Counted from the first letter of the stretch, positions 1 through 42,942 are shown. The stretch is DNA of 64,000 nt from Minutocellus sp. GHC0000111 (GCA_977018835.1 OZ361257.1:2356001-2420000); one strand, 5' to 3'. Numbers and translations are program-made. The notes: generated from the letters alone by a model not told the origin.

Positions 1-1594
1 GTGGTCAACTCCTGGCATGTTGGTGTCGTCCATAGCCCCAGAGGAAGCAACGGAGCCAGTGGACTCGCTAATGAGGGACCGAGAGCTCTTGTCGTAGGTG
101 ATGACGAGGCCGGCCTGCTGGTGCGAAATACCTTCGAGCTTCTGAACGGTACCTGGACCGCCAACCGCAGAGAAGGTGCTAACAGCCTCCTCGAGGATGT
201 CGTCAACCTTGTCATCATTGGCCTCAACCTTGCTCTCGACGGCGGCACTGCCATCAATGGAGGGCTGTTCCATCTCGGTACTATCGTCGTCATCATCATC
301 GGCAACTTCTTCCTCGTCTCCCTTCTCAGAGACCCCATCAATGGAGAGATTCAATGACGCACTCTCATCGAGATCAGCAGGACCATTCGATGCAAGCGAG
401 ATCTCGACAGAACTATCCTCCAGCTCAGACTCGCTGCCAGATTCTGTGCTCGACTCCTCCTCCTCGGGCTGCTCGGCGGCGGCAGCCTCCTCCATCTTCT
501 TCATGACACTCGACGCTCCCTCCTCCTCTGCAGTATCTTCCTCATCGGCACTGGCGGTGCGGCTCATCTTCTTGTTGGGATGTTTGACGGAATGCTTCTC
601 AATCCGTTCGCGATTCTTCCGCTCAAACTCCAACAACATATTCTGGGCCTCCGACACATGCATGAGGGGCAGCTCGTCGCACACGGCCTGATCGGAGATG
701 TGACGGAGGTACGACCGGGCGGTCTTGACGGCCTCCTCCCTCGTCATGCGCTTGGACAGCTCGTTGATGAGCTTGCGTTCGGCACGTTCGCGCTCGGCGG
801 CCGCGGCGGCGGCCAGAGTACGATTCTTCTTGTCGGTGCCGGGAGCCGACTTCATCAGCCACTGCTTCAGCTCTGACACTGGCTCGATGGGACGTTCGTC
901 GGCCTCGGCCTGCTTGGAAATGATGCGTGTGTACTGCGATGAGGCCAGGGACGACGTGGAACACGAGGCTGCCGAGGGTGAGGCAGGGACTTCAGCTTCA
1001 GCTGCAGGTGCAGCAACAGCGGGAGCGACCGCTGAGGTCTGCTTCTTCTCCGTGGTAATCAAGGAGGCTGCAAAATTCAGTAGCAGGGCGGGGAGAGGAG
1101 AGAGTGAAAGTTAGACACAAAAGGCCCAGTGTCGTATCAAGATCGTCAGGAACACAATATGTGGACCTTTTCAACTTACCAACGTCATCCAGAGCCGATT
1201 CCTCGTCGTCATCATCATCTTCTTTTTCTTCCTCTTCCTCATCGACAACATCTTCTTCTACGTCCTGCTCCTCCTGCTTCTTCGTCTCGACAACCTCCTC
1301 CACGACTGGCTCCTCCTCCACCTTCTCTTCCTCGACAGCTGGGTCCTCCATCTTCTCCACTTTCTGCTCCTGTTGCTGCACCTTCTTGACCTCCCACGGG
1401 CGAGGTCCTATCGCCGCCTTCTTCTTCGGCTGATACACGTGCCGCTGGGCCTCCTCCTTGTTCTTCCGCTCAAAGTCCATCAGAAATCGCTGCATGTCCT
1501 TGACGCGGCCCAGAGGCTTCTCGTCCGTCTCGGCCTGGGCCGAGATCTTGCGGACGTATCCGCCGCCGTTGCTGTCGTTGTTGGTGCCGGCCAT
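1..1594 (-). CDS. Low-complexity acidic protein with repeated V-x-[DE]-x-x-x-[WF]-L helical motifs; two exons, 3' end outside window
   Basis: ATG at 1594 (ORF 998..1594). GT donor at 1179 and AG acceptor at 1068 (intron 1068..1179) join to an open frame (ASLITTEKK...VSELKQWLMKS...VSEAQNMLLEFERKN) that runs to position 1. Confidence 0.6.
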
Positions 1595-2083
1595 ACTATT
1601 GGCTGTAGTTAGAGCAGAGGTAGGTAGGTGGATGGGTTATCGTTAGCGATCAATCGAGCCATGCATCGTGTCACACCGGATTCTTCGAATTCAACCATTT
1701 TAGCAAAAATGACACAAGATGCGTCACGAAAAGAAACCCAAACGTATAACTGCCACCACACTCACCGTTCTCTTCGCTCATTGCTGCTCTCCTTGGTAGG
1801 AATATGCAATCGTATTGTTTGGCTTGATTGTAGTAGGGTTGGTATCGTCTCTCTTTGGGAGATTTGACTTTGGTTTTGTGCGTGTTTGGGTTTGGCGGGT
1901 TCCGCCAACTCGCCGAATGTCGTTGCATTGTCGAGTCGAACGAGTCGAGTCCCGCTGAGAAACTGAAAATGGCGGCGATTGTTCTTTACGTACCTAGGTA
2001 GCGATTGAGTTGGATGGAACCAAGCCGAAAGCACATCGTCCTCTCCTTACTTACGGCACTTGCCCTTAGCCGTCGCAGCCACA

Positions 2084-2578
2084 ATGGGCCTTATTGGAAG
2101 AAATAGTTCGTCCTCCGACGATTCCAACGCAGCCGAGGAAGGCGAGGTGTCCGGCGCTGCCGTGGCAGGTGGCATTGCCGCCGCCGCTGTGGCCGGTCCG
2201 GTAGTAGGCGTGGCCGCCGCGGGTGTTGCGGCATGTGCCGCCCAAACGAACGACGGGGAGATCGGCGACGTGGCCCGAGCGGCCGGTGCCGTCGTGGCGC
2301 ATGCCGGCCAGGAGGCCAAGGAACTGAACCAACGGCATCACTTCACCGATCGGGCCAGGGTGGCCGCCTCGGCGGCGCTCGAGACGGCGCGGGATGCCGA
2401 CGAACGGCATCGCATCGTGGAGCGGGCCAAGACCGCCGGTGCTCAGGCCTACCGGCAGGTGGTCAAGTTCGAGAGCGACCATCACGTGCTGCAGACGTTG
2501 CGGCAGCGAACGGTCGATGGGATGAAAATCATTGGCAGCAAGTTGGTCGAATGCAGCAAGAGGGATACGACTGTGTGA
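2084..2578 (+). CDS. Hypothetical protein with Gly/Ala-rich hydrophobic hairpin (GGIAAAAVAGPVVGVAAAG...GDVARAAG)
   Basis: ORF 2060..2578, first ATG at 2084; coding-like GC bias. Confidence 0.55.
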   Translation: MGLIGRNSSSSDDSNAAEEGEVSGAAVAGGIAAAAVAGPVVGVAAAGVAACAAQTNDGEIGDVARAAGAVVAHAGQEAKELNQRHHFTDRARVAASAALETARDADERHRIVERAKTAGAQAYRQVVKFESDHHVLQTLRQRTVDGMKIIGSKLVECSKRDTTV

Positions 2579-3300
2579 TGATGAGTTTTGTGTAGTTGAG
2601 CCGCATCACCAGCGCAACAATGGGTCTTTTGCGCTCTCGGCATATGCTAGTCCACATACATGTGCATTGCAATTCATTTGCAAATGTTTTCGGGGACCCG
2701 TACGTACTTACTTGTATGTATCGAACATGTATGTAGAATGAAGACTCATCGAGTGAGCGAACTTCAGCTTCAGTAAAAGCTAATCTTAACGCCATGACCA
2801 ATGTTTCTTTATGAGTAGATCTAGCCACGTATCATACACTGATATGCATTTCATTGCTTTGAGAAGAGTACACGCGTGCAAAAGTGCAATCGTAGTTGTT
2901 ACTGATTAATTGCTTAAAGGTAAAAAATTTTCCAAAGAGGGAAACGGCAAGTGGAAAGAATTGAATGAATAGATCTAGATCTAGATCTAGTCTAGCTACG
3001 TAGTAGTACACACATGGATAAATATAATTACAAATCAGCAAAGAATGTCACTATCTAGTAGGCGAGTAACAATTTTCTACAGAGACGTTTACAGGATCGA
3101 CATAACAAGGCGAAGGAAATAGTAGAACAAGCAAAGCCTGTCGTAAATAATTACTCACAGCACCGTTCAGGTCCACTTCTAAAACCTCTTCAATGCTCGT
3201 AGTAACCATGTCCTCGACTCGAATGACGAGCCGAGAATCCGTCACTGTCATGTACATACACGATAAATGTCTCCGTAGATTTTGTTTTATTTATGCACAT

Positions 3301-4049
3301 GTTAGTCCCAAAATGCGCACTGTCCCAGTTCGCGAACTGGGATCCCAGTTTGCGAACTGAGATTCATTTATCTCCCAGTTTGCGCACTGGGCCCCAGTTC
3401 CCAAACTAGGATCTCAGTTTGCGCACTGATACTACCAGAATGGAAACTGAGATAAACACGCCAATCCGAATTTGGGAACCAGACGAGTTCGCGAACTGGA
3501 ACAAAAATGAATACCAGTTTGGAAACTGGCATTCTCGGCAAGTGTCAGAATGGTAACTGCCGGTGTTGGCTCATGCACAATGATTATGTACTGGTAGATC
3601 TATCTACAATACAAGTTGCACTGTGCATCATATCTTGAATTTGCAAGCTACATGTACTGGTACAGTAGCAACATGATGCCGGCATAGCACAGATGCATGT
3701 ACAGTTCATGACTTATATTTGCCAGAAGCAGCTAGCTAGATATTATTATTTATTCACTATGTGTATTTAGTATCAGCTAATGCAAATTATTGAGTATCAG
3801 CTCCGGCACTAATGTCGTCTGGACGTCTGGACCAGGTTTGGGCTGTGTTGCTTCACTATGAAAAAATGAAGCGAGGAGAAGCAAAGGCGATATCATCCAT
3901 GCTAAATTTTCATTATTTCTCGATTGATCCCAGTTTGCAAACTGAGATTGTGCCTGTGATCCCAGTTTCCAAACTGGGATAAATAAATCCTAGTTCGCAA
4001 ACTGGGATCCCAGTTCGCGAACTGGGACAGTGCGCATTTTGGGACTAAC
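3301..4049. mobile_element. Non-autonomous DNA transposon (MITE), copy 1
   Basis: ~58-bp TIRs GTTAGTCCCAAAATGCGCACTGTCCCAGTTCGCGAACTGGGATCCCAG...; subterminal CCCAGTT/AACTGGG palindromic repeats; ACAT on both sides (3297-3300, 4050-4053); no coding capacity; second copy at 13439..14185. Confidence 0.9.
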
Positions 4050-4243
4050 ACATACACATTGTCCCTATCTCTTCAAGATAACAACTCGATAAACCTTTAC
4101 GTAGATTCTTTTTATATATATTTATATCAAATATTCCAATTGTTGTTCGCACGACAGGAGACTGGGAGCGGAGCCATGAGCTCATTTTTTTAAGTAAAAA
4201 GGTATCGATGGATCTGGCATCACAGTACTGCTCTGTTACCATA

Positions 4244-5080
4244 CTAGCTAGTATCAGTGCATTCGGAAGAACGACGGCGAGAGGGACCTTTCGTGGCACC
4301 TCTCGTTCCACCGAGCGTCAGGCTGTCGTGGTGATTGAGCCAAGAGCCCAGCGAATAATTTGGTGCATCTTGATCGTCTTCCTGTTGCTGCTGCAGAGGA
4401 TTGACTGCGCTGGGGGCGTGAATGCCACCGGCGCCTCTTGAGGGTGTTGGCCTTGCTGATCCTTCCTCGATTGTTGTAGCAGTGTTGTCAGCAGCAGTGT
4501 GTGCTTGGCTTGTGTCCAAGTCGATGGCGATCGATTTCTTTAGAAGTTCAAGGTACTGCTGCTTGGTAAGAGTGTCAGTGGTAGTGGTAGTGGTTGATAT
4601 TCTATCGGCAAGCACAAAGGCCTCGTCGGAGGCGGCACGCGCGAGGGCGTCCTGCCTGGCCTGCCTGGCGTGGACCATGTAGACCTTGGCAATGGCCCGG
4701 CCGTCGATGGCCCTTCCCAACGTGGCCTGGCGCTCCTGCTCCCGGAAGACGGCCTCGATGGCGCCATCCTTGAGGTGGACCAGCTGCTGGAGAACCTCTC
4801 GGCTCTGGAGATGCTCGATGCCGCGGAGGGTCGTTTCGTCCTCGTTCAGAGACGGCGGTGGGATGTTGCCGCCATCCCCGTTGATGAGGATGGCACAAGC
4901 GCGAGCTTTCCGAACGTCCTTTTTGATGCCCCGGCGAATTCGATTGTAGTCCTCGTCGGTCAGCCAGAAATTGCTGCTGCTGCCGTTAGCGGTGCTCTCG
5001 CCGTCGACGACGGCGCCATCGCGATGATGGGGGCGCCCAATGGCAGAGTTGGATGGATCGAATCGAACTTGTTTCGCCAT
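4244..5080 (-). CDS. Diatom-type hypothetical protein (motifs WLTDEDY, RGIEH, AVFREQERQ, IAKVY, ALARAASDE)
   Basis: 278-aa ORF with a motif set typical of a large diatom hypothetical family. Confidence 0.7.
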   Translation of the reverse strand: MAKQVRFDPSNSAIGRPHHRDGAVVDGESTANGSSSNFWLTDEDYNRIRRGIKKDVRKARACAILINGDGGNIPPPSLNEDETTLRGIEHLQSREVLQQLVHLKDGAIEAVFREQERQATLGRAIDGRAIAKVYMVHARQARQDALARAASDEAFVLADRISTTTTTTDTLTKQQYLELLKKSIAIDLDTSQAHTAADNTATTIEEGSARPTPSRGAGGIHAPSAVNPLQQQQEDDQDAPNYSLGSWLNHHDSLTLGGTRGATKGPSRRRSSECTDTS

Positions 5081-5754
5081 GGTTCTGGATGGGATTACTA
5101 CTATGCGATTGTATTATTTATGAGGGTTATGATCAAGCAAGAGAGAACTGATATGATCACTGCTCACACCCTACCCGAGCACCCGCAACGCCATTTTCGT
5201 TTTTGGAAAGCCTCAATATGAAGGCTTATGTGTTCGATGTCGTTGTTGGAAGTTATAGATGCAAGTCATCTAAAAAGCGGCAATTTTTAAGAGGGCGCTG
5301 TCCATAACTTTTAGGAAGCCCCCAAAAAGCGTGTTTTGTGCCGTTTTTTCTTCGCACCATCGCCAAAGTTAGCACTCCAACGTGACAATGGGCTCCTCAT
5401 CGAAGGCCGCCGCTCTCCACAGTGGCGAAGAGTCATCGACGTTCCTTTCAGCATCAAGTCGGAAATCCCTCCAGGAACACTTGGTTCAGAGGAACTTCGA
5501 TGAATCAACTCTCCCTCAGAAACATGACAGTCGACGTGCACATCATCGTCGGATCGACCGAAATTAGTCTCGGCCGACGCATAACCAGCATTGGTGGTGC
5601 TGGTGGGAAGATATCTTGAAGTTTTGCTGTTGGGAGGTAAGGGGATATTTGTTTGGGGTGTTTTTGCACGTCTCCCTCATTTGGGGTTCTTTTTGTAAGG
5701 TTCTCATCGAAAAGCGCATCTTGCGCCAGAGCCGACACAAAGCAAAAAACAACC

Positions 5755-8283
5755 ATGGAAACATCACGTGCTAACGCCAAGGAGGCAATCCTCTCACTCT
5801 TGCTCTCATTCCCAGACGACGTCAGATGTACTTACTACACTATTGATGAGCTTGTCCGTATCTTGGTGCGCGGTGGCGTGTCGCCGAGCTTAGAGATCTC
5901 TCTTGTTCGATCATCTCTTCAACACGTCCCAACACGACACGAGGTCAATGTCCAACGACGACGTCCAGAGAAAATATCAGGCCTTGACGTTGCAAAGCCC
6001 TTCTACCGCTTCTCCAGAACAGCCGACAACGCCAGCCCACGCTCTCAACGCAATGGCAAGCGATCACTGCCGACCACACCTGAAAATTACTTCCAGGACG
6101 ATGAAAAGCATGGGCCCCATCTCAACGCGACACTGAAATATTATTCCGACAAGAATTCTTCGGGCGGTCGGTCATCTACTCCCACCGCCAACGCTACCGA
6201 TCGTCCCAACATCACCGGCGTGCAGCTCAACGGCAAAAGAATTGTGGTTGAGATGAAGCAGCTGTGTGACTTCGTGCAGAGTCTCCACCGATCGTGCGGC
6301 AATCTGTGTCTCTCGGCCGAGCCAGTTCGGCGTGGATTCGGCGTTACATTTGAATGGCGATGCGACAGATGCAACCAACCTTTTTCTTTTTGCACTTGGA
6401 TCGGCCAGAGGTCAGAAGTTGTGTGCCCCGGCAGAAAGCATTCTAGAAGTCAGGCTGGAATGAACTTGGAGCTGATGGAGGCAGCGGAAGATGAGGCCAT
6501 GCACGCAAGTCGCTTCATGAATTTCTGCACGAAGGCCGACATCGTCCATCCGACCGAAAAGAATGCCCGACAGGTGGAAAAGAAATGCAGAGCAGCGGCT
6601 ATTGAAGCAGCTGATGAAATCATTGACGAGAACAGGGCAAAAGCATGTGCCGCTAGCAGCAAGACTGTTGAGTTTGAACAAGGCGGCGAGATGCACACGG
6701 CGGCGGTGGTTGCGGTGGCCCAAGACGGCAGCGCCCTCAAACGCGACTACGGCCATTGCTACACTGGCTCTGCTGCAGCGGTGTTTGCCGTAGACAAGGA
6801 AACTGGCCTTGTTGTTGACAAGGGAATCTCTCAGGCAAGCTGCCACTGTTGCGTGAGAGCCTGCAATGCAAGATTGAGGGAGAGGCGGGAAGCCGGCAAT
6901 CCAATAACGCCGAGTGAGCTCAAAAACATGAGCAAGGATGAGATACTGGCCCTGTACGACCATGATGGCTTCTGCTATCGCAACTCTTCCTACTCCCCCG
7001 GTGTGGCAGAGGAGCATCTGGCCGAGAATGTTGGACGGAATCTTCTGGTCGACGATGAAGGAAGCGTGCAGGCGTGTCCTCTTTTCGTTGAGAAGCACGT
7101 TGCCGATGGCGATAGCAAAGGCATTACTAGGGCAGCAGCCGCTCAGGAAGACATAGTAGGTGATGAGTTGGCTTCTGGTGTTGAGCTTTGCCGTGACTTT
7201 AATCATCTGAGCAATTCAATTGACTCAGGCTTTCGAAAAGTTTGCAAAGGAGTTGAAAATTTTAATGCCATCCCCCGACCACGCATCAATCGGATGAAAC
7301 AGGACATTTCGAAGATTACTGATCGGTACAAGCACAGCGTTCTCGATCAGCCCGATGGTGCTGTGTCCGAGGAGGAAAAACAAAGTCATCTGGCCCTCCT
7401 TCAGAAAGAACTCCAGTCCGTCGTTCGTCACCAATGTGGCATTCACACTTTTTGCACCACCAACACGTGTGATTGGATTCGCCTCAGCATTGCTCATCCT
7501 GATTGGAGTGATGGCAAGCTCGATGAGGAATGGAGCTCGGGGAATCAATTCGATGGCGACATATTGGAGATTAGTGACGACACGATTCGCAAGATGACGC
7601 TTGAAATAACCAAGAGAATCAACAAGAATACTGCCGACTCCAACTGCAAGAAGGAATCTACCACCGGCGTCGAACAGCTCAACGGGATGGTGACGAAGTT
7701 CACGATGGGGAAAAGGCCGAATTTGACTGCTTCAGACGCCTACCCAAATGCAACAAGTAGAGCCGCTGGCCACAAGTCACTGGGTACGGAATTCAATGAG
7801 CGAGTTCTTGGAAAGTTGGGATCGAGGGATTCTCCTACCCGAAAAGATGGATTCGATGCAATTGACCGGAAGCTCGAGGGCGACCTTGCGCGTAAGCGCA
7901 CCGATGAGTACAAAAAGAGCAAGAGCGACAGCAAGCGCCTTCGAGCAGCCTTGCGAAACAGAAGCGAGAAAGACGACAAGGACTATGCGTACAAGAAGAA
8001 CAGGGCCCTAGCTGCTGGTAAGGCGAAACCAGCAAAGCCTGGCCGCAAGAAGAAGATTGACCAGCAGTGTCAGAAATGCAAGCAGCTTGGCCACACTCGG
8101 GCTGAATGTCAATGCGACGATGCTGACGACGTTGTCGTTTACGCCGGAAAGAAGCGCAGAAGCCCAGGCAGCAACAAGAAATCTGCAAGAAATAATAAGA
8201 AAGCTAAGACAAACTTCGGTGTATCGGCAAATGATGTTAGCTCTTGGATGCCGGCGATACTGAGAGAAAATGGCAGCTTGTAA
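5755..8283 (+). CDS. Kolobok-type DDE transposase with N-terminal Cys cluster and C-terminal CCHC zinc knuckle
   Basis: Motifs AQDGSALKR (D1), VADGDSKG (D2), CRDFNH, TTGVEQLNG (E); RRGFG..CDRC; CQKCKQLGHTRAEC; Lys-rich NLS-like tail; ATG at 5755. Confidence 0.85.
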   Translation: METSRANAKEAILSLLLSFPDDVRCTYYTIDELVRILVRGGVSPSLEISLVRSSLQHVPTRHEVNVQRRRPEKISGLDVAKPFYRFSRTADNASPRSQRNGKRSLPTTPENYFQDDEKHGPHLNATLKYYSDKNSSGGRSSTPTANATDRPNITGVQLNGKRIVVEMKQLCDFVQSLHRSCGNLCLSAEPVRRGFGVTFEWRCDRCNQPFSFCTWIGQRSEVVCPGRKHSRSQAGMNLELMEAAEDEAMHASRFMNFCTKADIVHPTEKNARQVEKKCRAAAIEAADEIIDENRAKACAASSKTVEFEQGGEMHTAAVVAVAQDGSALKRDYGHCYTGSAAAVFAVDKETGLVVDKGISQASCHCCVRACNARLRERREAGNPITPSELKNMSKDEILALYDHDGFCYRNSSYSPGVAEEHLAENVGRNLLVDDEGSVQACPLFVEKHVADGDSKGITRAAAAQEDIVGDELASGVELCRDFNHLSNSIDSGFRKVCKGVENFNAIPRPRINRMKQDISKITDRYKHSVLDQPDGAVSEEEKQSHLALLQKELQSVVRHQCGIHTFCTTNTCDWIRLSIAHPDWSDGKLDEEWSSGNQFDGDILEISDDTIRKMTLEITKRINKNTADSNCKKESTTGVEQLNGMVTKFTMGKRPNLTASDAYPNATSRAAGHKSLGTEFNERVLGKLGSRDSPTRKDGFDAIDRKLEGDLARKRTDEYKKSKSDSKRLRAALRNRSEKDDKDYAYKKNRALAAGKAKPAKPGRKKKIDQQCQKCKQLGHTRAECQCDDADDVVVYAGKKRRSPGSNKKSARNNKKAKTNFGVSANDVSSWMPAILRENGSL

Positions 8284-8387
8284 ACACGTGTAAAATATTT
8301 TATCACTGTAAATAAAAATGGATTTATTGTGTGCTGTTACTCACGTGCTACGCACATTCTTGTTATCTACATGTGTTGAGGTAATGA

Positions 8388-9617
8388 TTATGCATTTTCC
8401 TCTTCTTCTTCCTCTTCATCTTGATGACCAGGGATGAATCCAACATATCGTTCACCTTTATCATTTGGATAAATGAACCTAATGCAAAAGACTAGACAGG
8501 TTGGCAAGGGCTTCCGATCAAGCCAACCTCTCACATGATACACCTCAGTTGCATAGTACCAATACAGCATGTTCCTCTTCAAATTATTTGCCATGGCTTC
8601 GACTGGCATGGTGGTTGCGTAGTATTTGTCAGCGATATCCTCCAGGTCCTCCTCCGTCGGCACCAGCATTTCTTCGCAGACGCATTTCTGAAAGAAGAGT
8701 GTGCCGTACATTGAGCAGCTTCGGTTGGCGGCAGTGCAGCAAGCAGGGGGTATTGGCGGCCTCTCTCTGGTCTCGTCCCAATTACCGAATGTGTCTGCCT
8801 CCGGCGCTGCCGTCGGATCATCGTCGGCTTCCTCACAAACGGCCGCAACAAGAGCATCCGTGTCCGATCTGATCGCTGCTGATGGCCCACCATCTACCTG
8901 CAGAAGTTGGCCCATTCCAACAATATCAAAATCAACTAGTCCAATCCCAGCAGTAGAGTGTATGTCATCATATGGAGCCACATGCCATCGGTGGAACTTT
9001 GTCAATTTGATCACATGGCCCTGTTGTAGACTTCGGGCCTTTTCGGTAATTGTCAGGGCAACACGAGCGACGATAAGCTTTCCGCTTCCATCAAGCAAAG
9101 TAAGCGATGTGGTGTTGAAAGGTCGGCCGTGCGCAGCAAGAGCCGATCCAATATCGATCCGTTTCCCATGAAGTTGAAATATAGGGAAGAATTCAGGTCC
9201 GGCGTCAAACATGGGATCTTGCAATTGATCGACGATGCCGACCGTCAGCCTCAACTTCACATCAGCCACGGACAGGTTGGTAACTACGAGGCCGGGCCGC
9301 TCAGCAGCGACATCAATATCATCCCGAACATGATACTTATCAGCGCGAGCCTCGACTGCTTTGACAAGATGTTGAAGTGCATGGCCGACGCCGGGATTGT
9401 TCCATAATTCTCGTCCTTGTCCGTTCGGGTCGTTCTCCAACGTGACGGCGAGGCCCTCCAGTATCTCGGTAACAGCGTCTTTCGCTTTGTCCTCCGCCTT
9501 CTCTTTCTTCTTGTCAACAGGCAAAATCGGGCGACCGGAGTTATCTGTCTTGAGTTTCCGCAACCGCGTATCTGCGTTGTGGGCCGGGCCGGCACTATTA
9601 TCAGCGCTGCGCTTCAT
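8388..9617 (-). CDS. KolX-like accessory protein (C-terminal P2X7 ballast-like domain; central RPA70N-like OB fold)
   Basis: C-terminal NNLKRNMLYWYY..RKPLPTCLVFCIRFIYP..GERYVGF matches the KolX/P2X7-ballast pattern and is preceded by CC/CxC; lies inside the TIRs convergent to the transposase. Confidence 0.75.
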   Translation of the reverse strand: MKRSADNSAGPAHNADTRLRKLKTDNSGRPILPVDKKKEKAEDKAKDAVTEILEGLAVTLENDPNGQGRELWNNPGVGHALQHLVKAVEARADKYHVRDDIDVAAERPGLVVTNLSVADVKLRLTVGIVDQLQDPMFDAGPEFFPIFQLHGKRIDIGSALAAHGRPFNTTSLTLLDGSGKLIVARVALTITEKARSLQQGHVIKLTKFHRWHVAPYDDIHSTAGIGLVDFDIVGMGQLLQVDGGPSAAIRSDTDALVAAVCEEADDDPTAAPEADTFGNWDETRERPPIPPACCTAANRSCSMYGTLFFQKCVCEEMLVPTEEDLEDIADKYYATTMPVEAMANNLKRNMLYWYYATEVYHVRGWLDRKPLPTCLVFCIRFIYPNDKGERYVGFIPGHQDEEEEEEENA

Positions 9618-10266
9618 CGTAATGAAGAGGGGGCAGAGCGGCGATTCTCATGGTGGGGTCGAGTTTTTGTCATGCTTCGCTCGTCATAAGAAATAAGAAT
9701 AAGGGGGATTAAAACGGGGAAAATTATGGACAGCGCCCTCTTAACACAAATGACGAAGATCGTCAACTTTAACAAAGAGGCCAGGCGTATAACTCAACAA
9801 ATAACAATGAACTCAGCATCACTAGCATAGTTCCATCTTAGGATACGTATTTAGCTAGCGGAATTCTTCGAGCAGTAGCTGTTAGTAAAATGCCTTGACT
9901 ATTTATTTCTAGACGCTGCTACTATCCACGAACACGTGGGTGCCGGCGGTGGCGCATCATCGCAAACATTGTAGACGAACATTCCTAATGGGCTTCATTG
10001 AGGGGCCAAGTGTGCACAACCAATCAAGCACCTGGCAATATTTAGCTAGCACTTCCATAAGCGAATATTTGGAAATAATTGGTTGCCTTCGACATTATAT
10101 GCAATAATGATTATTTTACAGATAACTTTCTCCGACTCCCACGTGCCGGGCGTTAATACAATACTAACAATACATTAGAACATGGCAATTCAAATGAAAA
10201 CTTCCATACTAGCTGTAACTAGAAAGGCGGTGCACCAGTGAAACGGTACAAAGAAAGATGGGGAGC

Positions 10267-11812
10267 TCAGGGCCAACCAGGCATCTTATCAAAAAGAGCG
10301 GCGAAAGTGCCATCCCCGAGGCTAGAGGGCAGGAAATTTAGGACCATGAGAGTCACAAAGAGACCAAGAAATAGTTTCTTTTCGCTATCTGCGGCATTTA
10401 ACACCACCGATGGATAGTAAGCCTCTGCCAGCCTCATAGAGTGAATGGAATTGTCGTCTTTGAAATTAGAGAACATCTCAAAAAGATTCGAATAGGGCGT
10501 GCTGGTGTCGGCATCAGAAATGGATGAAAGTGGCATCGACTTGAGCGCACTTTCATTTTGCTCAAGGAAGGCATCATACGTGTGAAAGGCGTGGCTTTCA
10601 ATCATTTGGGCAAAACGATAGGCAAGGCTTGGCGAAAGAAACCACAGGTGAACGATTGTGAGATGGGCAAACAATGCAGCATGTTCTGCAATGAATCTAG
10701 CCGTCCAGGTCTGACCTCCACCGAGTTGTTCGATCATCCTCTGTCTTCTGAATTTGGATAGCTCCTGGTGGGCATGGGCCACCCTCAAATCTTCAGAAGG
10801 GCGCCAAAGGCCAAATGATTCATAAAGATTCAACATAGAAAGAAAGGAGAGATATGGTGCCCGACCAATCTTCTCCATTATGCATAGGCGTTGAATGGCG
10901 CTTCCCGAGTTCAACTTATCGTCAGGCTGCTTATAGACAAGGTCGATGAGAGGACAAAGCAAGTGGTAAGGTGATCGAAGAACGAGAGGCTCTTTTATCA
11001 CACCGAGCGATGCTTTCAAGATCCCAAGATGGAAGTTTCAGCGAGTTCAACTTGGCTCTGAGATCTACTGTCTCGTCGCCCTTGCTTGTCGTTGCCTTGT
11101 TCCTTCCCAACATGGAATCGAGATTGCGAACAAATTGATTTGTCGCAAGAGCGAAGAAATTGGGCGGAGGAGTGTAGTACGGAGCAGGATATTCTTCATC
11201 CCTGGCAAACCAAAGAAACAGCAAAAACAGAATGATATGGATCTCTTGAGATGAGGATGGAGAGATTTCGAGGAAAAATAATGCAAAAGCACACAGCTCT
11301 CGCGGAACCAAAAACAAAACTTCCAGCTGTGCTGCGGTCAACTGACGATCGCCAGTGGTCACATACCCATAGCTTCCTCTAGCATTTGGATCAGTACTCG
11401 TTATGGCGGGGGTTTCTGTTTCGTCGTCCTTGCTTCCGTCGTCTACTTTGCTCTTCACCTTGTTATCGATTCCTCCCGCCGACGAGCCCGAAAACTCTTT
11501 GTACTCCTCATACTGAGCCTTCAGATCATCCATCTTCTGGTCCAGATCGGCCTCAAAGCCATGGAGAAAGACACCTGATTCAGCAATCCCATCTGAACTT
11601 GCTTCTTCTCCTTCGATATTAGCCTGACCGCCCTGCTTCTCGTTCTGAGGAGCAAGTGCCGTCAAGATCGAGAAGCGAATCTTTCCATCACTGTGCTGGT
11701 CAGACCGCCAGCAGGCTTTGCCGTTGCTGGCGGAAGTGGCCGCAGGTACGAGGAATGCAGCCGACGGCGACGATAAATAGAGAAGGCAGACCGACCTAAT
11801 ACCAAGATGCAT
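10267..11812 (-). pseudogene. Inverted copy of the PTOX/alternative-oxidase-like gene (frameshifted, degenerate diiron site)
   Basis: Mirror of 19237..20782 with the same intron and frameshift. Confidence 0.65.
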
Positions 11813-12217
11813 GGTTGGTTGCTGGTGGGGCGGCAGGTATCTCATTTTGCCATGCAGAAGATCTGAGATTGAAAGATCTTCACCTTTTTCTTCCTTTCTT
11901 CCTTTTTTCCCCTTTTGGTAGCTCCATCGATCGGCGAACAGGCAGGAATCAATGCGCTTAGTTGTTTGTAAAGCTCTACCGGTACCAGTCCTATGCGCTT
12001 CGGGTAGACCGAGCTATTTAACCGCTAGCTGGGTCAACAAATACGCAAGCGGCGTTATGAGTAAATACTTCCGGCTTTCTTTGCTTGATCTACTTTCTTC
12101 ACTTCCCATCGCCTCATGTCAATCTGATAGAAACGTCTTTGTAGAAAATTGTCATGCATACGTAGATCTACTATAGATTAGTAAGCGCTAATGCGATCCT
12201 TTTACAATTTGATCAAA

Positions 12218-12516
12218 TTACAGCAAAAGCCCTTTATTCACATCCTCCAAATTTCGTAGCAACGCTTCCTGTCTCTTCAGCCGTTTGTCCAATGCGGCCT
12301 TGGTGTGTTCCACAACTTCATTTGGCGCCTTCTCTAGGAAGTCGGATGTTTCTAGTTTGCAAGAGAGGATGTTGATACTCTTTCGGTTTCTTTCCATCTG
12401 CTTCTCGATCAAGTCCCGCCTTTCCTTGAGCTTCTGTGTCTTCGACTTGGGAGTGGTGGAAGAAGAACGTCGGACCTTGTTCGACTTCTCTTCGAATCCC
12501 TTGACATTGATCAACG
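12218..12516 (-). pseudogene. 3' fragment of rtcB (coiled-coil tail only), truncated at a rearrangement junction
   Basis: Reverse complement of 18533..18831 (LINVKGFEEK...NKGLLL). Confidence 0.85.
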
Positions 12517-14185
12517 CAGCAGCAATTTCTGGCTGACCGACGAGGACTACAATCGAATTCGCCGGGGCATCAAAAAGGACGTTCGGAAAGCTCGCGCTTG
12601 TGCCATCCTCATCAACGGGGATGGCGGCAACATCCCACCGCCGTCTCTGAACGAGGACGAAACGACCCTCCGCGGCATCGAGCATCTCCAGAGCCGAGAG
12701 GTTCTCCAGCAGCTGGTCCACCTCAAGGATGGCGCCATCGAGGCCGTCTTCCGGGAGCAGGAGCGCCAGGCCACGTTGGGAAGGGCCATCGACGGCCGGG
12801 CCATTGCCAAGGTCTACATGGTCCACGCCAGGCAGGACGCCCTCGCGCGTGCCGCCTCCGACGAGGCCTTTGTGCTTGCCGATAGAATTTCAACCACTAC
12901 CACTACCACTGACACTCTTACCAAGCAGCAGTACCTTGAACTTCTAAAGAAATCGATCGCCATCGACTTGGACACAAGCCAAGCACACACTGCTGCTGAC
13001 AACACTGCTACAACAATCGAGGAAGGATCAGCAAGGCCAACACCCTCAAGAGGCGCCGGTGGCATTCACGCCCCCAGCGCAGTCAATCCTCTGCAGCAGC
13101 AACAGGAAGACGATCAAGATGCACCAAATTATTCGCTGGGCTCTTGGCTCAATCACCACGACAGCCTGACGCTCGGTGGAACGAGAGGTGCCACGAAAGG
13201 TCCCCATCGCCGTCGTTCTTCCGAATGCACTGATACTAGCTAGTATGGTAACAGAGCAGTACTGTGATGCCAGATCCATCGATACCTTTTTACTTAAAAA
13301 AAATGAGCTCATGGCTCCGCTCCCAGTCTCCTGTCGTGCGAACAACAATTGGAATATTTGATATAAATATATATAAAAAGAATCTACGTAAAGGTTTATC
13401 GAGTTGTTATCTTGAAGAGATAGGGACAATATATGTGTGTTAGTCCCAAAATGCGCACTGTCCCAGTTCGCGAACTGGGATCCCAGTTTGCGAACTAGGA
13501 TTTATTTATCCCAGTTTGGAAACTGGGATCATAGGCACAATCTCAGTTTGCAAACTTGGATCAATCGAGAAATAATGAAAATTTAGCATGGATGATATCG
13601 CCTTTGCTTCTCCTCGCTTCATTTTTTCATAGTGAAGCAACACAGCCCAAACCTGGTCCAGACGTCCAGACGACATTAGTGCCGGAGCTGATACTCAATA
13701 AATTGGCATTAGCTGATACAAAATACATATAGTGAAAAATAATAATATCTAGCTAGCTGCTTCTGGCAAATATAAGTCATGAACTGTACATGCATCTGTG
13801 CTATGCCGGCATCATGTTGCTACTGTACCAGTACATGTAGCTTGCAAATTCAAGATATGATGCACAGTGCAACTTGTGTTGTAGATAGATCTACCAGTAC
13901 ATAATCATTGTGCATGAGCCAACACCGGCAGTTACCATTCTGACACTTGCCGAGAATGCCAGTTTCCAAACTGGTATTCATTTTTGTTCCAGTTCGCGAA
14001 CTCGTCTGGTTCCCAAATTCGGATTGGCGTGTTTATCTCAGTTTCCATTCTGGTAGTATCAGTGCGCAAACTGAGATCCTAGTTTGGGAACTGGGGCCCA
14101 GTGCGCAAACTGGGATAAATGAATCTCAGTTCGCAAACTGGGATCCCAGTTCGCGAACTGGGACAGTGCGCATTTTGGGACTAAC
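12516..14185. repeat. Inverted duplication of 3301..4980 (5'-truncated copy of the 4244..5080 gene plus MITE)
   Basis: Reverse-complement identity with a few SNPs and a 9-bp deletion (HARQARQD to HARQD); homology stops exactly at the MITE terminus 14185. Confidence 0.92.
13439..14185. mobile_element. MITE copy 2 (opposite orientation to copy 1)
   Basis: Same TIRs GTTAGTCCC...GGGACTAAC; TA/TG-rich flanks. Confidence 0.9.
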
Positions 14186-14219
14186 ATATATTTATTTCCT
14201 CCAATCCACCACCACCAAG

Positions 14220-15112
14220 ATGGTCTTCGTCAAGGTTCAAAAGTCCAAGGCGTACTTCAGCCGGTACCAGGTCAAGTTCCGCCGCCGCCGCGAGGGCCGC
14301 ACGGACTACCGCCAGCGCAAGCGCCTCGTCTGCCAGGCCAAGAACAAGTACCAGAGCCCCAAGTACCGCCTCATCGTCCGCTTCACCAACACCCAGGTCA
14401 TCTGCCAGATCGCCTACTCCCTCATCGACGGCGACCGCATCCTGTGCCAGGCCAACTCCAAGGAGCTCCCCCGCTACGGCCTCAAGGTCGGCCTCAAGAA
14501 CTACGCCGCCGCCTCCTCCAGAAGGTCGGCCTCGACGACGTCTACGAGGGCAACACCGAGATCGACGGCGAGGTCGTCTCCTGCGAGGAGGGAAAGAAGA
14601 CCTACTACGTCGACGAGGTCGACGAGGACAAGCGCCCCTTCCGCGCCCTCCTCGACGTCGGCTGCAAGGCCACCACCACCGGATGCCGCATCTTCGGCGC
14701 CCTCAAGGGGGCCGCCGACGGAGGCCTCGACATCCCCCACTCCGAGAAGCGCTTCCCCGGCTACGACCGCGACGCCAAGGAGTACGACGCCGACATGCAC
14801 CGCGAGCGCATCTTCGGCGGCCACGTCGGCGAGTACATGGAGTACCTCGAGGAGGAGGACAACCAGAAGTACCAGGAGTGCTTCGCCTCCTACATCGCCA
14901 ACGACGCCGACGCCGACGGCCTCGAGGAGCTCTACGAGTCGGTCCACGAGGCCATCCGGGAGGATCCCAGCCCCAGCGCCAAGAAGGACTTCAGCCCCGA
15001 CAAGTCCTACAAGCGCAAGGCCAAGCTCACCCTCGAGGAGCGCAAGGCTCGCGTCCAGGCCAAGAAGGACGCGAAAATTGCGGAATTGGAGGCCGTCTCC
15101 GATGACGAGTAA
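14220..15112 (+). pseudogene. RPL5: 60S ribosomal protein L5 (uL18), frameshifted
   Basis: [30 protein letters not shown]...GLKNYAAA, then frame change to LLQKVGL...[23 protein letters not shown]...; the conserved YxTGLLxARR segment is missing near 14514. Confidence 0.9.
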
Positions 15113-16680: not shown

Positions 16681-17196
16681 GTTGCTTCGTTGATGCTTTA
16701 ATGCTTGATTTTTTTCTATGTTGGCGTCGTGCGAGGCTCGGACGAGGCTGTGCATGTGGACTGTGTACATGCGCTGGTCCATAAGAGGTACTAGCTAGTA
16801 TGTTAGTTCTCGTTGCGCCGTCGGTGGCTCTGCCTGCGGTCTGCTCTGCGTCTGCGTATCTTTTGACAGTCGAGTGAGTCCAGAAAGATACGAGGGTGTT
16901 CAGGACAGCAATCAGTGAACCAAGCAGGAATTAGCTGCTTGCTGGTTTGAATGGTTGATGAAAGGCATTCATATCGCATGATTCATTGCTGTGCCTCTCG
17001 TTGGTGCTAAATATTAGCGCAGTAGAGCCTGTACTGGCTAGAGCTTAGGTGGCGGAGGCGATCTTTTCTTGACACGCCTCCACGGAGAGGATGGTAACCA
17101 GATATCTGATCTCCCCAGTGACAACATGTGACCGAGGCGATGAATGCACTTCCACGATTTTGCACTTCACTTCTCCAACAACAACTAATTAGGAAT

Positions 17197-18831
17197 ATGA
17201 AGTTGTCGAATGCTCGTGCATCAATCCTGCCGGCCTTGCTAACCATCGCTGTCGGCACTACAGGCGCTGATGCCTTTGTCCTCTCTCGCGAAACGCCAAG
17301 GCACTTCAGTTCGCAGATTCGCAGCAGCAGCGCGGGAGGAGACGAAGATTCGCCTACTAGCGAGTTTCCAAGGATTATAGAGACAAAGGGCGTGCCAATC
17401 TATTTGTACACGGATGACATTGAGTTCGAAGCCATCGAGCAGCTCAGGGTGCTTGCCGAGAGTCCCGTCCCAGTTGATTACGTATCGGCAATGCCAGGTG
17501 CTCATCTCGGAAAAGGAGTTACCATAGGCTCGGTATTTGCTTCAGAGAAGTACGTATGTCCGAATGCCGTGGGCGTGGATATTGGATGCGGAATGGCGGC
17601 TGTGCCCATCGATGGGCTGTACAAGAACCAACTGACAAACGATCAAATGAACGAGATCCAACGGCTCATCAAGGAACAAATCCCAACTGGATTTGAGCAG
17701 CATCGCAAGACGCTGGAGGGGACCCGCGAGGTGTTGACGCAGATCACCGATGAGGTGGAACCAACTCAGTACCTCAAGGACCAACTTTTGGAGCCTCGTG
17801 TCGCCGATCAGCTGGGCACCCTTGGAGGTGGCAATCACTTTCTCGAGGTGGTGTACGAGGAAGGTACCGAGCAGGTTTGGATCATGTTGCATTCAGGAAG
17901 TCGCAACATTGGCAATCGTGTCGCAACGCGGTACGACCAGGTGGCCAAAAGTTTGCTTTTGAGTCAGGGCGTGGACACCCAACCTCTTCGAGGTATTCAC
18001 TACATGCCTATCGACTCGCAAGAGGGACAGAATTATCTACGCGACATGGAGTGGTGTCAGCGCTACGCCTTTCATAATCGCCAGGCGATGCAAAATATCA
18101 TTGAGACGATTGTGGAAAGGGTCACCGGCAAACAGGCCAACGTTGCGAAAGGGACCAACATCCATCACAACTATTGTGCCTGCGAAGATTGCGGTGATGG
18201 CAGGCGACTGTGGATAACCCGCAAGGGCGCGACGTCCGCAAAGGCAGGAGAGTACGGTATTATTCCCGGATCGATGGGTACTGGCAGCTACATCACCCGG
18301 GGCCGAGGAAATCTCTTGAGCTGGAATTCATCATCCCACGGTGCAGGCCGGAGAATGTCGCGAACGAAGGCAAAGGCAGAGATCGCTCAGAGTGATTTTG
18401 AAAACGTCATGAAAGGGATTGTTTGCGACACCACGCCGGCCGTCAAAGACGAAGCTCCGCAAGCATACAAGGATCTCAATGTCGTTATGAAGAATCAAGA
18501 GTCTCTCACTGATGTCGTTCACCACCTTCTCCCGTTGATCAATGTCAAGGGATTCGAAGAGAAGTCGAACAAGGTCCGACGTTCTTCTTCCACCACTCCC
18601 AAGTCGAAGACACAGAAGCTCAAGGAAAGGCGGGACTTGATCGAGAAGCAGATGGAAAGAAACCGAAAGAGTATCAACATCCTCTCTTGCAAACTAGAAA
18701 CATCCGACTTCCTAGAGAAGGCGCCAAATGAAGTTGTGGAACACACCAAGGCCGCATTGGACAAACGGCTGAAGAGACAGGAAGCGTTGCTACGAAATTT
18801 GGAGGATGTGAATAAAGGGCTTTTGCTGTAA
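17197..18831 (+). CDS. rtcB: Bacterial-type RNA ligase RtcB, plastid-targeted, with C-terminal ValRS-like coiled-coil arm
   Basis: VGVDIGCGM, GTLGGGNHF, HSGSR, HHNY, PGSMG, SHGAGR, DEAPQAYK; signal peptide ending ADA-F; tail KLETSDFLEKAPNEVVE. Confidence 0.92.
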   Translation: MKLSNARASILPALLTIAVGTTGADAFVLSRETPRHFSSQIRSSSAGGDEDSPTSEFPRIIETKGVPIYLYTDDIEFEAIEQLRVLAESPVPVDYVSAMPGAHLGKGVTIGSVFASEKYVCPNAVGVDIGCGMAAVPIDGLYKNQLTNDQMNEIQRLIKEQIPTGFEQHRKTLEGTREVLTQITDEVEPTQYLKDQLLEPRVADQLGTLGGGNHFLEVVYEEGTEQVWIMLHSGSRNIGNRVATRYDQVAKSLLLSQGVDTQPLRGIHYMPIDSQEGQNYLRDMEWCQRYAFHNRQAMQNIIETIVERVTGKQANVAKGTNIHHNYCACEDCGDGRRLWITRKGATSAKAGEYGIIPGSMGTGSYITRGRGNLLSWNSSSHGAGRRMSRTKAKAEIAQSDFENVMKGIVCDTTPAVKDEAPQAYKDLNVVMKNQESLTDVVHHLLPLINVKGFEEKSNKVRRSSSTTPKSKTQKLKERRDLIEKQMERNRKSINILSCKLETSDFLEKAPNEVVEHTKAALDKRLKRQEALLRNLEDVNKGLLL

Positions 18832-19236
18832 TTTGATCAAATTGTAAAAGGATCGCATTAGCGCTTACTAATCTATAGTAGATCTACGTATGCATGACAA
18901 TTTTCTACAAAGACGTTTCTATCAGATTGACATGAGGCGATGGGAAGTGAAGAAAGTAGATCAAGCAAAGAAAGCCGGAAGTATTTACTCATAACGCCGC
19001 TTGCGTATTTGTTGACCCAGCTAGCGGTTAAATAGCTCGGTCTACCCGAAGCGCATAGGACTGGTACCGGTAGAGCTTTACAAACAACTAAGCGCATTGA
19101 TTCCTGCCTGTTCGCCGATCGATGGAGCTACCAAAAGGGGAAAAAAGGAAGAAAGGAAGAAAAAGGTGAAGATCTTTCAATCTCAGATCTTCTGCATGGC
19201 AAAATGAGATACCTGCCGCCCCACCAGCAACCAACC

Positions 19237-20782
19237 ATGCATCTTGGTATTAGGTCGGTCTGCCTTCTCTATTTATCGTCGCCGTCGGCTGCATTCCTCG
19301 TACCTGCGGCCACTTCCGCCAGCAACGGCAAAGCCTGCTGGCGGTCTGACCAGCACAGTGATGGAAAGATTCGCTTCTCGATCTTGACGGCACTTGCTCC
19401 TCAGAACGAGAAGCAGGGCGGTCAGGCTAATATCGAAGGAGAAGAAGCAAGTTCAGATGGGATTGCTGAATCAGGTGTCTTTCTCCATGGCTTTGAGGCC
19501 GATCTGGACCAGAAGATGGATGATCTGAAGGCTCAGTATGAGGAGTACAAAGAGTTTTCGGGCTCGTCGGCGGGAGGAATCGATAACAAGGTGAAGAGCA
19601 AAGTAGACGACGGAAGCAAGGACGACGAAACAGAAACCCCCGCCATAACGAGTACTGATCCAAATGCTAGAGGAAGCTATGGGTATGTGACCACTGGCGA
19701 TCGTCAGTTGACCGCAGCACAGCTGGAAGTTTTGTTTTTGGTTCCGCGAGAGCTGTGTGCTTTTGCATTATTTTTCCTCGAAATCTCTCCATCCTCATCT
19801 CAAGAGATCCATATCATTCTGTTTTTGCTGTTTCTTTGGTTTGCCAGGGATGAAGAATATCCTGCTCCGTACTACACTCCTCCGCCCAATTTCTTCGCTC
19901 TTGCGACAAATCAATTTGTTCGCAATCTCGATTCCATGTTGGGAAGGAACAAGGCAACGACAAGCAAGGGCGACGAGACAGTAGATCTCAGAGCCAAGTT
20001 GAACTCGCTGAAACTTCCATCTTGGGATCTTGAAAGCATCGCTCGGTGTGATAAAAGAGCCTCTCGTTCTTCGATCACCTTACCACTTGCTTTGTCCTCT
20101 CATCGACCTTGTCTATAAGCAGCCTGACGATAAGTTGAACTCGGGAAGCGCCATTCAACGCCTATGCATAATGGAGAAGATTGGTCGGGCACCATATCTC
20201 TCCTTTCTTTCTATGTTGAATCTTTATGAATCATTTGGCCTTTGGCGCCCTTCTGAAGATTTGAGGGTGGCCCATGCCCACCAGGAGCTATCCAAATTCA
20301 GAAGACAGAGGATGATCGAACAACTCGGTGGAGGTCAGACCTGGACGGCTAGATTCATTGCAGAACATGCTGCATTGTTTGCCCATCTCACAATCGTTCA
20401 CCTGTGGTTTCTTTCGCCAAGCCTTGCCTATCGTTTTGCCCAAATGATTGAAAGCCACGCCTTTCACACGTATGATGCCTTCCTTGAGCAAAATGAAAGT
20501 GCGCTCAAGTCGATGCCACTTTCATCCATTTCTGATGCCGACACCAGCACGCCCTATTCGAATCTTTTTGAGATGTTCTCTAATTTCAAAGACGACAATT
20601 CCATTCACTCTATGAGGCTGGCAGAGGCTTACTATCCATCGGTGGTGTTAAATGCCGCAGATAGCGAAAAGAAACTATTTCTTGGTCTCTTTGTGACTCT
20701 CATGGTCCTAAATTTCCTGCCCTCTAGCCTCGGGGATGGCACTTTCGCCGCTCTTTTTGATAAGATGCCTGGTTGGCCCTGA
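19237..20782 (+). pseudogene. Plastid-targeted PTOX/alternative-oxidase-like protein; intron 19683..19847; frameshift near 20045; degenerate diiron ligands
   Basis: Presequence SAA-FLVP; EKIGRAPYLSFLSMLNLYESFGLWR, SPSLAYRFAQMIESHAFHTY; gtatgt..ccag intron joins GSYG/DEEY. Confidence 0.7.
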
Positions 20783-21431
20783 GCTCCCCATCTTTCTTTG
20801 TACCGTTTCACTGGTGCACCGCCTTTCTAGTTACAGCTAGTATGGAAGTTTTCATTTGAATTGCCATGTTCTAATGTATTGTTAGTATTGTATTAACGCC
20901 CGGCACGTGGGAGTCGGAGAAAGTTATCTGTAAAATAATCATTATTGCATATAATGTCGAAGGCAACCAATTATTTCCAAATATTCGCTTATGGAAGTGC
21001 TAGCTAAATATTGCCAGGTGCTTGATTGGTTGTGCACACTTGGCCCCTCAATGAAGCCCATTAGGAATGTTCGTCTACAATGTTTGCGATGATGCGCCAC
21101 CGCCGGCACCCACGTGTTCGTGGATAGTAGCAGCGTCTAGAAATAAATAGTCAAGGCATTTTACTAACAGCTACTGCTCGAAGAATTCCGCTAGCTAAAT
21201 ACGTATCCTAAGATGGAACTATGCTAGTGATGCTGAGTTCATTGTTATTTGTTGAGTTATACGCCTGGCCTCTTTGTTAAAGTCGACGATCTTCGTCATT
21301 TGTGTTAAGAGGGCGCTGTCCATAATTTTCCCCGTTTTAATCCCCCTTATTCTTATTTCTTATGACGAGCGAAGCATGACAAAAACTCGACCCCACCATG
21401 AGAATCGCCGCTCTGCCCCCTCTTCATTACG

Positions 21432-22661: not shown

Positions 22662-22765
22662 TCATTACCTCAACACATGTAGATAACAAGAATGTGCGTA
22701 GCACGTGAGTAACAGCACACAATAAATCCATTTTTATTTACAGTGATAAAATATTTTACACGTGT

Positions 22766-27336: not shown

Positions 27337-27440
27337 ACACGTGTAAAATATTTTATCACTGTAAATAAAAATGGATTTATTGTGTGCTGTTACTCACGTG
27401 CTACGCACATTCTTGTTATCTACATGTGTTGAGGTAATGA

Positions 27441-28670: not shown

Positions 28671-28811
28671 CGTAGTGAAGAGGGGGCAGAGCGGCGATTC
28701 TCATGGTGGGGTCGAGTTTTTGTCATGCTTCGCTCGTCATAAGAAATAAGAATAAGGGGGATTAAAAACGGGGAAAATTATGGACAGCGCCCTCTTAACT
28801 CATTCCAAGGC

Positions 28812-42864: not shown

Positions 42865-42942
42865 GGTTGAGGGGCGTTTGTGCTGATATGCCGATCGAGG
42901 CCGGCGGCGAACGATAGCTTCAACAGTCAAAAATTTGGCCAT

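Follow-up and report, generated by a model that had tools for sequence, protein, structure and literature searches.

An intact Kolobok transposon of Minutocellus sp. GHC0000111 encodes, in addition to its transposase, an accessory protein (ORF2) that is built of a helical N-terminal unit, an OB fold of the type found at the N-terminus of RPA70 (RPA70N), and a reduced KolX module. We regard the identities of these domains as secure, with very little residual doubt. Regarding the function of the OB domain, we favor a repurposed peptide dock, which would hold a tryptophan motif from the tail of the linked transposase and would not be a faithful mimic of RPA; going by the sequences, we place the probability of this reading at about 0.4. 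The window, that is, the whole stretch of DNA that was analyzed, comprises 64,000 nucleotides (OZ361257.1:2356001-2420000), and positions are counted from its first letter.

A two-gene Kolobok element with close copies in the window

The element spans 4,450 bp (5291-9740), contains two genes, and is intact in the window sequence. Its parts and its further copies in the window are as follows.

5287-5290 (no strand): left TTAA target-site duplication, from an inverted-repeat search
5291-5311 (+): left terminal inverted repeat, which begins with GA (5'-RR) and shares 17 perfect bp with the right end
5755-8283 (+): Kolobok DDD/E transposase, 842 aa, open frame (PF20700, E = 1.6e-20)
8212-8253 (+): acidic-hydrophobic Trp motif at transposase residues 820-833, a candidate ligand of the OB groove by sequence resemblance
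8388-9617 (-): ORF2 accessory protein, 409 aa, tail-to-tail with the transposase, with 104 bp between the stops (ORF call)
9720-9740 (-): right terminal inverted repeat, which ends with TC (YY-3')
9741-9744 (no strand): right TTAA target-site duplication
21309-25379 (-): second copy, left-truncated (element bases 378-4450, 99.88%)
25378-28794 (+): third copy, left-truncated (element bases 1035-4450, 99.62%)

TTAA duplications and RR...YY ends are hallmarks of Kolobok elements according to Kojima and Bao (2022, PMC9587614). The Kolobok hallmarks looked for were all found here: the 4-bp TTAA duplication, with each inverted-repeat arm (5287-5311 and 9720-9744) in contact with a TTAA, the 5'-RR/YY-3' ends, and a DDD/E transposase with the C/DxxH signature, which reads D481-x2-H484. 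The triad of this transposase is likely D324, D451/D453, and E640, as assigned by eye against the Data S5 alignment rows of Kojima and Bao (PMC9587614). Furthermore, a second zinc finger (C363-x2-C366...H403-x3-C407) follows the first Asp, as it does in the transposases of related metagenome loci described below, and a C-terminal CCHC knuckle starts at residue 772. A second CCHC finger in this place has been assigned to the KolobokP, E, D, and 5 groups and to solitary families, and not to Kol0 (PMC9587614), from whose description as lacking this finger the window transposase departs.

The element is multi-copy and looks recently active. ORF2 is intact in the second copy (21432-22661, +) as well as in the third (27441-28670, -). 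The element looks young because the protein cluster of ORF2 holds 71 member sequences, the two other window copies are at least 99.6% identical to it, and its ends are joined to flanks other than those of the window in contigs of four public runs. The second and third copies are fused head-to-head at 25378/25379 (within 18533-28799); one of them lies in a 6,849-bp inverted duplication of 5668-12516, right flank included, and the other stops at a TTAA in a new flank. This arrangement looks like the outcome of alternative (one-ended or sister-chromatid) transposition or like an assembly artifact. A separate 1.68-kb inverted duplication (98.5%; 3299-4980 and 12516-14187) encloses the Kolobok, and each of its arms contains a MITE-like unit of roughly 750 bp with many short internal palindromic repeats.

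Copy variants observed at 5300-7250 in the public runs X1, X2, X7, and X13 consist mainly of C>T/G>A substitutions and of TG/CA changes in pairs, a pattern typical of methylated-CpG decay. They are concentrated in the 5' two thirds of the transposase gene, and the stretch 7249-9745, which includes ORF2, shows only 2 to 4 differences per contig. Three public runs show a deletion of 215 bp (7034-7248), and no difference in CpG depletion was found between the two genes (o/e 0.97 versus 0.99).

Four RNA-labelled public runs cover the whole element with both termini and continue into other flanks. We considered this coverage as a sign of transcription of the window copy and rejected it, as DNA in the libraries could explain the signal: three of the four runs also cover single-copy DNA at low depth, and this low-depth coverage includes stretches without a long ORF in X13. 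The lack of an X7 contig on the control stretch carries no weight either way. Two relatives of ORF2 (in the P0007 cluster and P0028) originate from MMETSP transcriptomes, which is a weak hint at expression.

Other features were noted in the window. An RtcB tRNA-splicing ligase of 563 aa (17140-18831, +; E = 1e-101) is extended at its N-terminus and carries at its C-terminus a coiled arm that matches Val_tRNA-synt_C (E = 1.4e-7), and the 3' end of its gene is duplicated at 12218-12516. A piece of an alternative-oxidase-like gene lies at 10267-10878 (-). The region 44800-51400 is rich in GC (about 0.6), contains long ORFs, and is associated with split repeats at 42942-43174 and 50838-51393; we take these ORFs to belong to a DIRS-type retroelement, given their reverse transcriptase and RNase H motifs. 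A spliced gene at about 14100-15112 (+) presumably encodes a ribosomal protein L5-like product, and the gene at 55323-58235 (-) presumably a RecQ-like helicase whose N-terminus carries a zinc finger.

Domain layout of ORF2

The ORF2 protein was divided into five segments, all encoded on the minus strand.

9336-9512 (-): residues 36-94, conserved three-helix unit with a weak likeness to the Hip N-terminal dimerization domain
8874-9266 (-): residues 118-248, RPA70N-type OB fold (family profile and structure comparison)
8748-8873 (-): residues 249-290, acidic variable linker, of which 281-290 are predicted to be ordered (alignment and AlphaFold)
8622-8741 (-): residues 293-332, cysteine cluster with C294, C301, and C312 (family alignment)
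8436-8594 (-): residues 342-394, KolX/P2X7-ballast-like helical hairpin (profile match)

An AlphaFold2 model of ORF2 computed without templates reached a mean pLDDT of 82.5 and a pTM of 0.72; the pLDDT of an earlier AlphaFold model from 6 sequences was 47. The Hip-like character of residues 36-94 remained below significance, both against PF18253 (3 of 115 family members, best E = 0.033) and in the comparison of PDB 4j8c with ORF2 profiles (E = 0.37 and 0.88). A single OB is present, followed by the zinc/ballast module, and ORF2 does not have the RPA1 layout with OB folds A, B, and C.

The OB fold of ORF2 is of the RPA70N type

The preliminary description had recognized RPA70N-like motifs in ORF2 by eye, and five of them were located at residues 122, 145, 171, 194, and 225 (within 122-234). 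As a single sequence, ORF2 gave no match in Pfam and nothing meaningful among PDB sequences (best E = 0.74). A profile search of 1.84 billion representatives yielded 251 relatives at E ≤ 0.001, the best 150 of which were used; for the resulting 115-sequence alignment (A5), we removed the four longest proteins along with short fragments and copies that were nearly identical to one another. Against 177,635 PDB sequences, the A5 profile gave 22 matches up to E = 10. Twelve of these are distinct RPA70N sequences (E = 7.8e-4 to 1.8e-3, covering RPA70 residues ~5-117), 4 are P2X7 sequences, and 6 are helical proteins at E = 0.39 or worse; no OB fold other than that of RPA70N was matched up to E = 10. 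In Pfam, the OB family with the most member matches was PF04057 (Rep-A_N), found by 7 of the 115 sequences at E ≤ 1 (best E = 6e-4), and a viral fold library returned weak generic OB matches only. An OB profile built without the query lineage scored the query at 56.7 bits, compared with 1.6 bits for the best of 201 controls (200 shuffles and a reversal).

Structure comparison led to the same family. A search of the AlphaFold models with Foldseek could have returned no OB fold at all; RPA70N was instead the top match for both models. VIA-align superposed 115 residues on RPA70N (Z 13.3, rmsd 2.0), followed by TPP1 (Z 10.9) and MCM10 (Z 9.8), and a structure search independent of Foldseek ranked Rfa1-N (Z 12.0) and RPA70N (11.8) above the next fold (9.6), with RPA70AB at 8.6. 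The lists obtained from these searches with ORF2 models were filled by matches to the OB domain, so that the absence of P2X7 from them carries no weight. The OB fold of TPP1, like that of TEBP-beta, is used for protein contacts; although TPP1 was the second-best structural match, it had no sequence-profile match to the ORF2 family. ORF2 thus shares with RPA70N and Rfa1-N (PF04057) the same fold across the domain, a five-stranded OB barrel preceded by an N-terminal helix, and a detectable sequence homology. In part of the ORF2 family, this homology includes the DG turn and the A-T/S-Q-L-N residues that follow strand 3.

With a sequence profile and two structure aligners in agreement across the whole domain, the RPA70N-type OB suggested in the preliminary description is borne out, and we consider it firm that residues 118-248 form an OB of this type and not just any OB. 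That the match reflects a generic OB fold or a modeling artifact without kinship to RPA70N is highly improbable and largely refuted by this agreement, which includes the RPA70N-type N-terminal helix, by the template-free nature of the model, and by the distance to the next-ranked family (2.4 Z units), even though the identity to RPA70N is only 12 to 16%, profiles of 6 and of 44 sequences did not reach RPA70N in the PDB, the best single-member Rep-A_N score (20.2 bits) lies under the gathering cut-off of 26.7 bits that none of the 115 members pass, and the Rep-A_N clusters ranked by Atlas at 0.88 and 0.85 are leads only.

The fusion is a trait of a Kolobok lineage

Among the best 150 of the 251 relatives, 81 match the OB profile as well as the C-terminal one, 60 match only the latter, and 3 only the former; since both profiles were built from the ORF2 family itself, these counts show architecture and not remote homology. 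Of the 55 representatives in which the C-terminal module is preceded by 200 residues or more, 54 have the OB. We also scanned metagenome contigs with the C-terminal motif, without selection for an OB or a transposase, and obtained 25 loci, 22 of which encode the OB. An opposite-strand transposase was found 16 to 173 bp past the ORF2 stop in 22 of the 25 loci, using a profile that included some of them, and the remaining 3 have only 0 to 636 bp of contig left past the stop. Independently, tblastn with the window transposase detected 15 of the 25 loci at E < 1e-3. Two loci (L016 and L017) are whole TTAA-flanked elements with GG ends. Taken together, these sequence comparisons indicate that the fusion is a lineage trait.

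The OB domain is under purifying selection, with dN/dS values of 0.11 to 0.46 (11 pairs with a synonymous divergence of 0.03 to 0.62; the pairs are not independent). Across nine elements, the distances between OB domains correlate with those between transposases (Spearman 0.88, Mantel p = 1e-4; 0.76 for the C-terminal module), but we rejected this correlation as evidence of binding, as shared descent on the same element explains it.

Several members of the family deviate from the common arrangement. Rho_N/SAP-like repeats precede the OB and ballast parts in P0085, and P0158 and P0151 contain the ballast part with no OB detected. In P0023, a host membrane protein (compare 41896-42942, -, in the window) is joined to an OB remnant, which is probably a gene call across an insertion. 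In L017, the whole element (4648-9481) has long terminal inverted repeats of about 108 bp or more, and perfect 40-base matches begin at both 4648 and 4716. The transposase matches of L002, L009, L012, and L015 to L020 break at common places (close to residues 360 and 456 of the window protein), a pattern suggestive of conserved introns that would be absent from the single open frame of the window transposase.

Of 30 clusters of relatives that were looked up, 2 carry a species name: the cluster of P0007, a 63% identical relative, includes a Minutocellus polymorphus member, and P0028 is from Extubocellulus spinifer. We take both species to be diatoms, and the host of the window element is likely a diatom as well. 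Searches with one peptide pattern each found no relatives in viral contigs or in prokaryote genomes.

A reduced KolX module related to the P2X7 ballast

The preliminary description had placed a Cys cluster and a KolX/P2X7-ballast-like C-terminus downstream of the OB, and both were recovered there. ORF2 residues ~342-394 align to P2X7, with an ungapped core, in two profile comparisons (from residue 539/540 to 593; E = 2.4e-4, for P2X7 540-593, and 1.6e-4), and 52 of the 115 members match PF20478 at E ≤ 1 (best 3.9e-6). The motif LPxC-x-IR-x2-[FY]P-x-Y-x-G, with its homology to the P2X7 C-terminus, is present, and R348, C374, and R380 of ORF2 are the equivalents of P2X7 R546, C572, and R578. The reference GDP and zinc residues were taken from Rump et al. 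(2020, PMC7016195) and from Kojima and Bao (2022, PMC9587614).

The GDP site of rat P2X7 consists of R546, H547, R574, R578, and K583, and invertebrate ballast proteins keep only R546 and R578 of it (Rump et al. 2020, PMC7016195). The same two arginines are kept in the ORF2 family, R348 in 107 and R380 in 101 of 112 members, and H547, R574, and K583 are not. Other features shared with the P2X7 ballast/ZCD/nanor group are the third cysteine motif, Y550, F/Y581-P582, and, in the window ORF2, the CC-x6-C spacing (PMC7016195). Rump et al. describe the ZCD in animals only, with N-terminal parts that have no obvious homologues (PMC7016195); the ORF2 module, in contrast, occurs outside animals, on a transposon, and behind an OB fold.

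Four cysteines are near-invariant (C294 in 111, C301 in 109, C312 in 111, and C374 in 112 of 112 members), and others are kept less often (C332 in 79%, with Tyr in the window ORF2; C314 in 42%; C293 in 7%). From their conservation, C294, C301, and C312 together with C374 are likely to form a single zinc site. In KolX, the zinc site comprises seven cysteines and two zincs (PMC9587614); ORF2 does not have such a site, and the first WCxCx2C cluster (WCxCxxC) is absent upstream of its cysteines in the family alignment. The description of ORF2 as KolX-like consequently holds only loosely: it fits the helical hairpin with its LPxC homology and the Kolobok context, and fails for the seven-cysteine zinc site and for a Kol0-type transposase.

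A variable groove and a candidate ligand in the transposase tail

RPA70N is a dock for acidic-hydrophobic peptide motifs with more than 20 partners; its residues R31, R41, R43, and R91 are required for partner binding, its groove is its most conserved surface, and its binding of ssDNA is very weak (Wu et al. 2023, PMC10479964). We mapped the groove positions from the A5-profile alignment, a mapping that may be off by one or two residues at positions 153 and 222. The equivalents of the four arginines in ORF2 are R153, T169, S171, and T222, only one of which is basic. Not one of the 65 members with all four columns has K/R at the four positions: 16 have none, 29 have one, 11 have two, and 9 have three, and the column equivalent to R31 is acidic in 33. 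Individually, K/R was observed at position 169 in 22, at 171 in 26, and at 222 in 24 of 69 members. The hydrophobic floor of RPA70N has become partly basic, with K/R in 31 of 65 members in the I33 column and, for the most part, in the M57 column (45 of 69). The 15 groove-equivalent columns have a mean entropy of 2.99 bits, compared with 2.83 for all columns and 1.64 for hand-chosen core columns, and groove residues differ by clade on the OB tree, the window lineage being distinct from the other clades. As no member keeps the four basic residues and the groove entropy is not below average, the barrel is conserved and its groove is free to vary from clade to clade.

Such a pattern is unlike the one expected of a mimic of an invariant host surface, and it argues, at the level of sequence, against a faithful mimic. 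The preliminary description had proposed that the protein mimics RPA and so recruits or titrates repair factors; of this, the RPA70N-type domain stands, and the groove arginines and groove conservation speak against the mimicry. We consider it unlikely that the groove engages host damage factors of the ATRIP, MRE11, BLM, and DNA2 types and in this way steers repair of the excision break or damps the checkpoint, as the R31 position is acidic in about half of the members, the window ORF2 retains a single basic position, and the groove is no better conserved than the average column, unlike in RPA70N. This reading does have in its favor that the domain is specifically RPA70N-type, that RPA70N binds more than 20 partners of this kind (PMC10479964), that basic groove residues persist in part of the family, nine members keeping three of four, and that other Kolobok accessory proteins are DNA-processing enzymes (PMC9587614).

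A candidate ligand for the repurposed dock is found on the element itself. The acidic-hydrophobic Trp motif of the window type is kept in all three relatives with an intact tail (P0182, P0184, and P0185). Moreover, among the 20 locus transposases in which both knuckle and tail were found, 19 have, beyond the CCHC knuckle, a terminal Trp motif, usually of the hydrophobic-Asp-Trp form and often present twice; the exception, L001, ends in an acidic-hydrophobic stretch without Trp. These tail motifs resemble the class of ligands bound by RPA70N (PMC10479964), a likeness of sequence that makes them candidates for the groove. The motif could also serve another partner or the transposase itself.

The basic residues that replace the hydrophobic floor of RPA70N would suit nucleic acid as well as peptides. 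The OB might thus have returned to nucleic-acid binding and, together with the C-terminal Arg pocket, might hold ssDNA overhangs or, after excision, the ends of the element that begin with a purine, in the manner of POT1-TPP1. The groove is indeed more basic and aromatic than the floor of RPA70N (K/R in 43 to 65% at positions 155, 157, 168, and 185, and an aromatic residue in 55% at 213), the family retains the two GDP-site arginines that all ballast-like proteins have in common, TPP1 ranks second among the structural matches, and Helitrons carry ssDNA-binding RPA homologues (PMC11417382). We nevertheless judge this possibility to be quite unlikely: RPA70N itself is a very weak ssDNA binder (PMC10479964), OB folds that bind ssDNA score lower (Z 8.6 for RPA70AB), the groove has no invariant aromatic residue, the domain has a median net charge of 0 across 63 sequences, and the other three GDP-site residues are lost.

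It is more improbable still that the OB is a structural part of a compact ORF2 body, in which it packs against the zinc module and its groove has no conserved ligand. The small KolX proteins work without any OB (PMC9587614), groove position 185 is K/R in 45 of 69 members, and the retention of the OB in nearly all long members suggests a needed function. A structural role would accommodate the restriction of conserved OB residues to core and turn positions (D176, G177, and G200), the whole-chain pTM, which suggests packed domains, and the lower conservation of the OB compared with the C-terminal module (mean identity 33% versus 48%).

Proposed role and relation to known systems

In the mechanism that we propose, an ancestral element would have captured the N-terminal domain of host RPA1, whose groove would then have diverged from clade to clade and would today accommodate the acidic-hydrophobic Trp motif at the end of the linked transposases. 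The N-terminal helices of ORF2 may dimerize the protein, the C-terminal module would likely bind one zinc, and R348 and R380 would likely contact a phosphate-bearing ligand, either a guanine nucleotide or a DNA end. ORF2 would be a scaffold or regulator of the transpososome and, as such, a cofactor of the transposase. For the broader proposition that a diatom-centered Kolobok lineage captured the RPA1 docking domain as an adaptor, either to the transposase tail or, where the groove is basic, to host checkpoint and repair factors drawn to the transpososome, we see slightly less than an even chance.

ORF2 is comparable to the KolX protein of Kol0 Koloboks in being the second gene of a TTAA element with RR...YY ends and in the homology of its C-terminus, with helical hairpin and LPxC motif, to the P2X7 ballast. 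It differs from KolX in its added RPA70N-type OB and helical N-terminal unit and in its cysteines, four of which are near-invariant, compared with seven conserved ones in KolX (Kojima and Bao 2022, PMC9587614). In contrast to RPA70N, its OB is not attached to ssDNA-binding OB folds. The closest precedent is, as described in the HELIANO paper, that of the RPA homologues borne by Helitron-like elements (PMC11417382), another DNA transposon lineage that stably carries RPA-derived sequence. Those genes are ssDNA-binding homologues on rolling-circle elements, whereas ORF2 has the protein-docking N-domain, fused to KolX, on a cut-and-paste DDE element (PMC11417382). No description of an RPA70N-KolX fusion was found in the searchable literature, a scope outside of which Repbase and subscription journals lie, and the main text of Kojima and Bao (2022, PMC9587614) makes no mention of an OB fold. 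The name Kolobok_1_FraCyl_2p, given in their Data S5 to a Fragilariopsis transposase, may point to an entry with another ORF (PMC9587614).

The ORF2 architecture is a distinct addition to the accessory proteins of Koloboks (DEDDh, PD-D/ExK, HNH, RecQ, and KolX), and it extends the occurrence of RPA70N-type domains beyond RPA1 to a DDE transposon and that of the ballast module beyond animals. KolX has no known role and shares its fold with what became the ballast of the P2X7 receptor; the OB fusion to a well-understood docking domain gives it a functional handle, as the groove is defined, a candidate ligand is encoded by the neighboring gene, and both genes lie on one intact 4.45-kb element. 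An active TTAA transposon of diatoms is also a possible genetic tool. If the broader proposition on a captured RPA1 adaptor is true, this cut-and-paste transposon would bring along an RPA-like recruitment hub of its own, and KolX, and with it the ancestor of the P2X7 ballast, would be a transpososome-associated module that binds nucleotides or DNA ends.
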